Positions 28,514 to 30,262 of a stretch of 64,000 nt of DNA are shown one piece after another (within the stretch, counting starts at the first letter, position 1; the number at the start of each line of letters is the position of its first letter). The position numbers were made by a program, and so were the translations under genes. Source of the DNA: Acidimicrobiia bacterium (GTDB lineage Bacteria; Actinomycetota; Acidimicrobiia; Spongiisociales; Spongiisociaceae); NCBI GenBank assembly GCA_965231815.1, contig OZ246890.1, positions 1,799,469-1,863,468 of the forward strand, given 5' to 3'. The notes beneath the pieces were generated by a model, which did no database searches, was not told the origin of the DNA, and saw only the letters and a list, made by a program, of their open reading frames with translations.

Positions 28514-30262
28514 ATGAACTTGACCAGCAGCAACATCGAGCGCCGACTGCACCTCGGCGAAGACAGCCGTTGGGAGTTCAAAGCGATTGTCTTCACCGGG
28601 ACAGCGGTCAAAGGCCCACGCCAGCAGGATCTTGCGGATGAATTGTCGGCGTTCGCCAACGGACGAGGAGGGTTCCTTCTGTGCGGCGTAACGGATGACG
28701 GCCGAGTGCAGGGGATGACGCGAGCGCAGATGGACGCTCTGGAGCGGGTGCTGGTCGAAGCGTGCATCTCGTCGGTAAAGCCCTCTATCGACGTGGAGAT
28801 ATCTCGAATGGAGGCTGGTGGCGGGTCGCTCTTGGTGGTTGAAGTTCCGCCGGGGTACGCCCAGCACGACAGCCCGGGCGGCTGCTACCGCCGGGTGGGC
28901 AGTTCCAAACGCAGGATGACCAGCGACCAGTGTCTCCGGCTCGCTCAACAGAGAGGACAGGCCCGGTTTGTATGGTTTGATCGGCAGCCGGTGCCCGGCA
29001 CGGGGATCGAAACCCTGACCCATAGGCTGTGGAAACCATTGATCAGCGCGACAGGCGCCGCGGACACCCTGACGGCTCTCCAAAACCTGCGCCTGCTGGT
29101 CGGAGACGACGGTGACGTGTTGCGGGCGACGGTAGCAGGGATACTGCTGTGTACCGATGATCCGCAACGTTGGTTCCCTAATGCGTCCATAATGGCCACT
29201 CTCTACTCGGGCCGTGATCGAGCCTCCGGGCAGCACGACGCGCAGGAGATCACCGGTCCGCTCCATGAGCAGATCGCCGGGGCGGTACGGTTCGTGTTGC
29301 GCAACATGCGAGTGGCTGCTCGCAAGACACCCGGACGGGTTGACATACCTCAATACAGTATCGAGGCGGTATTCGAGGCCGTGGTGAACGCGGTGGCGCA
29401 CCGCGACTATTCCGTTCAGGGACAACGGATCAGGCTGTCGATGTTCGCGGATCGGCTGGAGATCGACTCACCGGGCGCTCTTCCCAACGGCATGACCATT
29501 GAGAACATGGAGGTCAGCCAATCCACACGAAACGACGTCATTGCGTCGGTCTTCGGGCGGGTTGCCGTAGCCGGCATCCCCGGTTCGCAGAACCGTCAAT
29601 TCCTCATGGAACGCCGAGGTGACGGGGTGGCCGTCATTCTTAGGCGAACCCGGGAGACATCCGGTCGGGATCCGGTTTACCGGCTGATCGACGAGTCCAA
29701 CCTCGGGCTGACTATCCCGGCCGCCTCCCTCGAGTTTGTCCCGGCCCATGCCACCGTCTCGGTTCGATCCTCGGCCGGTCCTCTCCCCGGCGCTGATGTC
29801 CTGATCCTATTCCCGAACAACACCTGGAAACGGGCCGTGACCGGCGAGAACGGGGAGACCACCGTCGCGCTGTACACGACGCATCTGCCCATGAGGGTGT
29901 TCGTAGCAGCCACCGGCTACTCGGCGCATGTGGGTAAGGAATGGATTCCCGGCCGGGGTGGGATGGTTGTTGAGCTTGATGATCTCCCCGCCGGCGGGGC
30001 GGTAATCTTTCCGGAGGGAACCGGATATGTTCCGGGATTGGCAGGGCGATTGAACCCAATCCGCGATGGCCATGACAGAACCTACCTGTACGCGTCCAAC
30101 GTCGCAATCGAGCGGGGACGCCCGCAGCCGGCCCATTTCGTACTCGGGGAAGAACTAAGCCTCACCGACGCCGAAGGCCGGGAGGTGTTGGTTCGTATGG
30201 TTGACATAGCCGGTAGCTCGGCGCTGCTTGAGTACCGGTTTCCGGTTGCTAGCCCTGATTAA
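28514..30262 (+). CDS. Schlafen-like AlbA_2 (divergent AAA) + HATPase_c_4 domain protein with ~190-aa extra C-terminal region
   Basis: N-terminal EFK ... [21 protein letters not shown]; central [37 protein letters not shown]. Confidence 0.7.
   Translation: [582 protein letters not shown]

Follow-up and report, generated by a model that had tools for sequence, protein, structure and literature searches.

Introduction

Bacterial Schlafen proteins protect against phages via tRNA cleavage, with fused domains setting the trigger, and the active RNases among them carry an Ex4(E/D)xK motif (PMC13056530, Nat Microbiol 2026). The Ig-like domain of RorSlfn5 senses the T5 tail assembly chaperone, and the sensor of pSlfn5 is the more variable part of the protein (PMC13056530). 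In the Schlatpase proteins, ATP binding drives a tetramerization that completes the nuclease; the SLFN+PF13749 unit of RzAgo binds and hydrolyzes ATP via E314/N318 and tetramerizes, most Schlatpase-type proteins end in a short helix-turn-helix or in nothing, and in Poribacteria their genes lie in type I restriction-modification operons, sometimes fused to HsdS (bioRxiv 10.64898/2026.05.29.728809). Here, we describe gene T (open reading frame (ORF) 28514..30262), found in a 64,000-nt stretch of Acidimicrobiia DNA (hereafter the window), which encodes a Schlafen nuclease domain, a GHKL ATPase and a C-terminal two-part beta module, and which sits between folK and a DUF2520 gene in the fol-pan operon. 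We consider T to be probably a stand-alone, single-chain anti-phage effector of the Schlafen family and of the abortive-infection type, combining an ATPase with a ligand-binding module and carried as a promoterless operon insertion. To our knowledge, few sensors of bacterial Schlafen nucleases are known.

The gene class of T is itself already explained. As far as the searched literature goes, the new elements are the C-terminal module, its reuse across effector classes, and the housekeeping-operon home of the gene; the module is the concrete lead.

Results

Domain architecture of T

Gene T and its parts are located as follows.
28514..30262, + strand: gene T, whole ORF, 582 aa, ATG start; Schlafen nuclease, GHKL ATPase and C-terminal two-part beta module
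28559..28921, + strand: SLFN_AlbA_2 nuclease domain, residues 16-136 (Pfam PF04326, E 3.2e-20, 73 bits, cut-off 25)
28559..28582, + strand: predicted catalytic motif E16-x4-E21-x-K23 (EDSRWEFK, residues 16-23), of the Schlafen RNase form Ex4(E/D)xK
28922..29353, + strand: linker/middle region, residues 137-280, delimited by the AlphaFold2 (AF2) model and the alignment
29354..29698, + strand: GHKL (Bergerat-fold) ATPase, about residues 281-395 (HATPase_c_4, PF13749, at 303-392, E 5.6e-19, 68 bits, cut-off 26)
29744..29953, + strand: subdomain A of the module, residues 411-480, a transthyretin-like/CarboxypepD_reg-like beta-sandwich
29963..30238, + strand: subdomain B of the module, residues 484-575, about 90 aa, all-beta, high-confidence model, no catalogued family

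The original prediction, made from the sequence before any search, had placed a 582-aa protein with AlbA_2 and HATPase_c_4 domains between folK and the DUF2520/panC genes; the ORF, its flanking genes and both domains were confirmed, and the HATPase signature quoted there lies at residues 292-321. The nuclease domain matched the N-domains of SLFN11/12/13/14 in Foldseek (E 2e-5 to 6e-4) and PDB 2kyy at the sequence level (E 3.5e-5), and E16, E21 and K23 were at least 95% conserved across 61 family members. The ATPase domain gave Foldseek matches to PDK and to histidine-kinase CA domains, and E288-x3-N292 (EAVVN, residues 288-292) was likewise at least 95% conserved across 61 members; E288 and N292 were equated with E314 and N318 of RzAgo by motif, not by structural superposition. 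The middle region, with a mean pairwise identity of 0.54-0.58, had a predicted local distance difference test score (pLDDT) below 50 at residues 147-182 of the AF2 model and contained helical and strand elements at 185-271.

The full-length AF2 model, computed as a monomer, had a mean pLDDT of 75, and its top PDB match was 3LMM (AlbA_2-HATPase_c_4, Foldseek E 1e-13), followed by SLFN11-14 and then GHKL kinases. The SLFN and PF13749 domains occur in that order on one chain in T, which is the Schlatpase architecture. No helix-turn-helix family was detected in T by Pfam, and residues 405-575 were all-beta in the model.

T is a real gene rather than a chance ORF, because its full-length homologs matched at E = 0 and the ratio of nonsynonymous to synonymous substitution rates (dN/dS) was 0.16 against a 92% identical ortholog. 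We favor the start at 28514 over the shorter, 571-aa call in a relative, since residues 1-11 match the family consensus in the alignment.

Comparison with described systems

Judged by its sequence features, T would belong to both the pSlfn family and the Schlatpase supradomain. As in the pSlfn proteins RorSlfn5 and EcoSlfn7, a single gene joins an N-terminal Schlafen/AlbA_2 effector bearing Ex4(E/D)xK to a fused accessory domain. Some homologs of T lie near defense genes, as pSlfn genes do; the window copy has no defense neighbors. The commonest pSlfn class is a "HisKinase" (PF13749-type) fusion, as in T, and the C-terminal Ig-like beta-sandwich sensor of RorSlfn5 may be compared with the beta module of T. 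Unlike the pSlfn proteins, T has both a GHKL domain and a C-terminal beta module on one chain; its module is two-part, not hypervariable, and shared with TIR, PIN, caspase and kinase proteins, and the copy studied here sits in a housekeeping operon.

T shares with RzAgo and the SLFN-pAgo proteins the succession of PF04326 and PF13749 with an E-x3-N Mg-ATP motif, and its residues 39-344 align to the Schlafen-bearing pAgo model of PADLOC. T has no Argonaute core, its C-terminal partner is the beta module instead of PAZ/MID/PIWI or a helix-turn-helix, and its activation cannot be guide-dependent. The structural counterpart DIP2311 of Corynebacterium diphtheriae (3LMM), a COG2865-type "regulator" with no established function, has a similar length and the same AlbA_2, middle and HATPase_c_4 core over about 440 aligned columns, but is only 19% identical to T, which ends in an all-beta module without a helix-turn-helix match. 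The original prediction described these two domains as typical of defense-island "regulators", a label that is probably wrong for T, because the catalytic Schlafen motif is intact and such proteins were shown in 2026 to be nuclease effectors (PMC13056530).

PrrC and RloC resemble the T family in combining a nucleotide-binding regulatory domain with a latent tRNA nuclease (predicted in the case of T), in following an abortive-infection logic, and in being encoded within hsd operons, as is the case at about a fifth of T-family loci. The folds are unrelated, with GHKL and Schlafen domains in T versus an ABC-type ATPase and the PrrC nuclease, and the window copy has no hsd genes nearby. T has neither the helix-turn-helix that marks the COG2865-type "regulators" nor, at this locus, the features of a PrrC system. 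NCBIfam holds no family for T.

The C-terminal two-part beta module

The C-terminal region of about 190 residues had been put forward as novel. Pfam has no family over residues 393-582, which upholds the claim in part; the region is not peculiar to T, however, as 554 representative proteins were found to share it (search with residues 395-582 against 1.84 billion representatives, E <= 1e-3). When modeled alone with 37 diverse sequences, the module formed two beta domains with a pLDDT of 96.4 and a predicted template modeling score of 0.90.

Subdomain A is a seven-stranded prealbumin-like beta-sandwich. The CarboxypepD_reg family PF13620 was not matched by Pfam in T at E <= 0.01, and was matched in 22 of 56 other module-bearing proteins; CarboxypepD_reg domains serve mainly as spacers or binding modules outside the cytoplasm, whereas subdomain A of T is part of a cytoplasmic nuclease and always paired with B. 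Subdomain B contains the strongest motif of the module (GGsvIF..tG.iPGL.GRLNPI.D...RTYLYA.NIAI..G..QPV), and none of 10 diverse members matched a Pfam family there at E <= 10. The idea that B arose from A by divergence was rejected (hhalign probability 2.6%). No identifiable match to B was found in the PDB or in a viral structure library, the latter matching subdomain A only, and a PDB sequence-profile search with the module returned weak Ig-like matches, again to A only. B also occurs alone or as B-AB-AB tandems.

The T-type N-terminal part was present in only 39 of the 150 best module matches. Other module proteins carried N-terminal TIR/TIR_2, SEFIR, PIN_8/PIN_12, Peptidase_C14, Trypsin_2, Pkinase, AAA_14+DUF4143, Peptidase_M48 or DUF4062 domains, and N-terminal parts of module proteins matched the PADLOC models ThsB, bSEFIR, PD-T4-6, PDC-S01 and PDC-S66. 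No tblastn match to the module was found in 50,697 phage records, and a search of 72,556 plasmids gave one, a 734-aa TIR protein of Sinorhizobium chiapasense (NZ_CP133151.1, locus L097, 30926-47372; module 31.6% identity, E 2e-13), whose neighborhood holds three other TIR genes, a UvrD-like helicase and an AbiEii toxin. Since S. chiapasense has been cultured, it offers a host for studying the module.

Insertion of T at the folK-DUF2520 junction

The neighboring genes and the edges of the insertion are as follows.
27610, + strand: folB, upstream of folK
27989..28504, + strand: folK (HPPK; Pfam PF01288, E 7e-37), 5' flank of the insertion
28481..28513, + strand: 5' junction, the leader before the T ATG, shared with the remnant in locus L091 and overlapped in the window by the extended 3' end of folK
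30246..30275, + strand: perfect 12-bp hairpin TTGCTAGCCCTG-ATTAAA-CAGGGCTAGCAA, over the T stop codon, at the 3' edge of the insertion
30288..31100, + strand: DUF2520 gene (Pfam PF10728, E 1.4e-28), 3' flank of the insertion and query for finding empty-site relatives
31097, + strand: panC, downstream of DUF2520
32141, + strand: coaX, downstream of panC
32853, + strand: lysS, downstream of coaX

The order on the + strand is ftsH, folE, folP, a conserved 184-aa ORF, folB, folK, T, DUF2520, panC, coaX and lysS, with T separated from folK by 9 bp and from DUF2520 by 25 bp. We sampled the clade through homologs of the DUF2520 protein, which carry Acidimicrobiia names at 45-54% identity; the identities given for loci L091, L093 and L094 are those of DUF2520. 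T is an insertion into the fol-pan operon, as had been proposed. It was intact at the same site in L001/L002 (T protein 92% identical), and the site was empty in L093 (72% identical; DUF2520 follows folK after 156 bp) and L094 (65% identical; gap of 106 bp). The more distant relatives L083 and L084 were also without T.

In L091 (82% identical), T was reduced to a decayed 5' remnant. Between folK and DUF2520, this locus has a 243-aa polytopic membrane ORF (3444-4175), which had no match in Pfam or PADLOC, followed by about 780 bp of non-coding DNA (4176-4958) that still reads ATG-AAC-TTG-ACC..., corresponding to the T start plus its upstream leader, after which the similarity stops (tblastn E 9e-7; blastn of window 28481-28581 against L091 4465-4562, 75% identity over 100 nt). 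The folK-DUF2520 junction is a variable spot in the clade. From this pattern of presence, remnant and empty site, we conclude that T was gained before the window, L001 and L091 lineages split and after the 72% identical relative branched off; it was kept in two lineages and decayed in the third.

Between the window and L001, T had a dN/dS of 0.16 at a dS of 0.27 over 582 codons, within the range of the flanking housekeeping genes (dN/dS 0.06-0.41, dS 0.14-0.30), indicating that T co-diverged with the operon under purifying selection. A foreign base composition was considered and rejected: the GC content, GC3 and synonymous codon usage of T equal those of its neighbors, leaving no compositional sign of recent transfer. 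No promoter was found before T by consensus scan, and T is therefore probably read through from the fol-pan operon.

At the 5' edge (28440-28513 versus L001 9760-9967), the window folK is about 10 codons longer (…YQLSDSTKPKM*) and reaches into the T leader, and L001 has about 125 nt of extra spacer before T and a shorter folK end. A deletion has left folK and T only 9 bp apart in the window. At the 3' edge, the RNA fold of 76 nt around the hairpin reached -37.1 kcal/mol (z = -6.8), with no T-tract. The hairpin is kept in L001 with another loop and another stop codon, is missing from the other family loci scanned, and occurs as a single copy in the window. It might stabilize the RNA 3' end or attenuate read-through into DUF2520/panC; alternatively, it may be the scar of a recombination event. 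An integron cassette with an attC site was rejected, as the arms lack GTTRRRY/RYYYAAC core sites, the element is single-copy, and other family loci scanned do not have it.

Family distribution and genomic neighborhoods

The full-length architecture, including the C-terminus, is common, with more than 100 clusters at 59% identity or higher over 99% of the length. With one genome per species counted, T has relatives at 555 or more loci; neighborhood counts below refer to the best 80 of these (L003-L082, 44-62% identity). They span at least 12 phyla (Poribacteria, Latescibacterota, Acidobacteriota, Chloroflexota, Gemmatimonadota, Rhodothermales, Alpha- and Gammaproteobacteria, Acidimicrobiia, Spirochaetia, Binatia, Verrucomicrobiota and Thermodesulfobacteriota among them), and identities of 44-62% across phyla imply horizontal spread. 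Nearly all 80 records are metagenome-assembled genomes (MAGs), with titles or bin names such as Poribacteria, Latescibacterota, CAR/IRC/COS/RHO bins, "OM1 bin76", "Langseth_MAG" and Candidatus Foliamicus. Going by these record and bin names rather than by metadata, nearly all of the 80 best homologs seem to come from marine sponge symbionts, and horizontal exchange within a single habitat would seem to account for the family. A richness in restriction-modification and laterally transferred genes has been reported for sponge symbionts (PMC8163846).

The homologs appear to be linked to defense, in agreement with the original prediction. The nearest ones beyond the window lineage, at 78-80% and 71% identity, adjoin HigB, HicA, ParE and PemK toxins, nucleotidyltransferase pairs and type I restriction-modification genes, or sit in a type I operon. 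Restriction-modification genes were found at 25 of the 80 loci, a raw count with no matched random-gene control, made up of 18 with type I hsdM, hsdS or hsdR within 10 kb and 7 with a large methylase or Res-like helicase. At no fewer than 12 loci, T is enclosed in an hsdM-T-hsdS operon. Among 128 neighbors drawn at random from within 3.5 kb, ResIII, N6_Mtase, DUF4143, AAA_21 and Methylase_S were the most frequent Pfam families, and the remainder were single metabolic genes. The gene is hence not conserved at this locus throughout the clade, nor do its homologs appear to be free of defense links.

A conserved partner gene was sought by all-against-all BLAST clustering of ORFs from 83 loci and rejected, as no neighbor recurred in more than 15 loci. 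A second module protein nearby, for co-assembly, was likewise rejected, being present only in L048; beyond that, L053 yielded a fragment and L080 a weak partial match. L048 itself carries two full T-like genes (3-1673 and 9713-11734) in one 21-kb locus beside hsdM, hsdS and hsdR. L041 ("bacterium OM1 bin76") has a 56% identical copy (9995-11773) 6 kb from lysS-coaX-panC-DUF2520 (17599-21698), on the opposite strand and beyond the other end of the cluster; it is near the same operon and not at the same site.

Damaged members include L095 4048-5603, L096 4457-5498, L066, L067 and L079, in some of which the Schlafen part and a "module-only" part form separate ORFs; the "module-only" proteins are 3' halves of split or internally deleted genes. 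In L057 (8408-11371), an hsdM::T fusion ORF lacks T residues 1-127.

Discussion

We read T as a trigger-gated RNase of the Schlatpase type because of its motifs and of the published experiments on its relatives. The Schlafen/AlbA_2 domain would be an RNase, most likely a tRNase, and would form a Schlatpase unit with the GHKL ATPase, in which ATP binding probably assembles the oligomer that completes the nuclease. The C-terminal module would act as a ligand-binding sensor or gate, the nuclease staying silent until the trigger is bound. An Acidimicrobiia ancestor gained T at its folK-DUF2520 junction, as a lone gene with no promoter of its own, and T is probably transcribed by read-through from the fol-pan operon.

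Several observations weigh against this reading. The function of T is inferred only, as is that of every other module-bearing protein, and PADLOC (2023) has no model for the T architecture, giving partial matches only to Schlafen-bearing Argonaute partners. The window copy is flanked by housekeeping genes and lacks defense neighbors, with no restriction-modification homolog (including hsdM/S/R) in the 64 kb, an absence that also counts against a role in guarding such a system. Many family members are split or truncated, and some internal deletions remove the GHKL part. Decay seems to be frequent, which is what a costly or toxic gene would lead one to expect. Conservation is about equal in the module and in the enzymatic domains (mean pairwise identities of 0.51-0.57 and 0.51-0.61), and in pSlfn5 the sensor is the more variable part; this speaks against an arms-race protein sensor. 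Some module proteins are extracytoplasmic (trypsin and caspase fusions with signal peptides, a kinase with a transmembrane helix), which speaks for a general binding module rather than a dedicated phage sensor. All told, the description that fits the module best is that of a general ligand binder with a conserved putative ligand.

A broader proposal, which we put forward tentatively and hold to be somewhat doubtful, is that A and B together constitute an undescribed, widely shuffled ligand-binding module of prokaryotic conflict systems, working inside and outside cells with one conserved trigger on at least eight effector classes (Schlafen-GHKL, TIR, SEFIR, PIN, caspase, trypsin, Ser/Thr kinase and AAA-DUF4143). 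The Schlafen-GHKL-module family, spread horizontally at 45-62% identity through at least 12 phyla and largely among marine sponge symbionts, would therefore be a shared, habitat-specific defense gene.

Among the alternatives, T may be a PrrC-like guard of type I restriction-modification, in which the Hsd complex, bound by the module in place of a phage product, holds the nuclease latent until a phage anti-restriction attack frees it. PrrC, the tRNA nuclease whose gene lies within the prr type I locus, offers a precedent. The same-strand position of T within hsdM-(small ORFs)-T-hsdS-...-hsdR operons at 12 or more loci, and the type I genes within 10 kb at 18 of 80, point in this direction, as do the Poribacteria type I operons with Schlatpase genes and some HsdS fusions (10.64898/2026.05.29.728809); the high conservation of the module would fit a conserved cellular partner. 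Nevertheless, we regard this as unlikely, considering that about 70% of loci have no restriction-modification gene nearby, that none lies within 28 kb of the window copy in either direction, that the module is also found on secreted proteases, which cannot bind Hsd, and that T is related to PrrC neither in sequence nor in fold. The same conservation would suit a receptor for small molecules or glycans, whereby a putative polar pocket of subdomain B (N514, D518, R522, Y526, Q538, D552) binds a metabolite, a second messenger, or a cell-wall or glycan fragment, making T a stress- or signal-activated toxin rather than a direct sensor of a phage protein. Invariant polar residues in B across all architectures, the absence of hypervariability, the occurrence of the module in extracytoplasmic proteins, where transthyretin-like/CarboxypepD_reg domains are common, and the B-AB-AB tandem arrays, which suggest multivalent binding, are consistent with such a receptor; since no signal-producing enzyme is conserved beside T homologs, and B has no identified structural relative, we consider it improbable.

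It is very unlikely that T is a DNA-binding transcriptional regulator or another non-immune ATP-binding protein, maybe acting on the fol-pan operon, even though homologs are annotated as "putative DNA binding domain-containing protein" or "ATP-binding protein", the COG2865-type relative 3LMM shares the N-terminal core, and T lies in one transcription unit with fol and pan genes. T has no helix-turn-helix and an all-beta C-terminus, its nuclease motif is intact, the same operon lacks T in relatives and retains only decayed T in L091, and homologs occur in unrelated, often defense-related contexts in at least 12 phyla. A functionless relic, that is, an inactive gene that looks intact and is carried along by an essential operon, might be suspected from the frequent truncation or splitting of family members, the lack of an own promoter and the decayed L091 copy. 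We judge this highly improbable for the window gene, given that dN/dS is 0.16 over 582 codons at a dS of 0.27, similar to the housekeeping neighbors, and that all catalytic and structural motifs are kept.

With the preferred reading of T as a Schlafen-family anti-phage effector, the locus would show that a potentially toxic defense nuclease can persist as a promoterless passenger in an essential biosynthetic operon, outside any defense island. Such a gene was gained, kept under selection and lost within one clade, and island-based searches would miss such cases. The compact, well-folded, two-domain module is combined with many immune effectors, and half of it (subdomain B) is absent from Pfam. 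Knowledge of the module's ligand would make clear how an entire group of single-gene systems becomes active.

Other features of the fol-pan region

An ORF of 158-184 aa lies between folP and folB (27040-27594), has no Pfam family, and is 70-90% identical in L001, L091, L093 and L094; in this clade, it is a conserved but uncharacterized component of the fol operon. The window has coaX directly after panC (32092-32141), as do L001, L091 and L094, with no panD between them, unlike the mycobacterial gene order, in which panD lies between panC and coaX. FolB of L094 (3467-4387) is a 306-aa protein with a Clp_N domain N-terminal to the aldolase domain. Downstream of two amidohydrolase genes, homology to L001 18135-21615 revealed genes with GRDB, Gly_reductase and BKACE domains at 36735-40165 (- strand), a cluster that looks glycine/betaine-reductase-like and has no relation to T.

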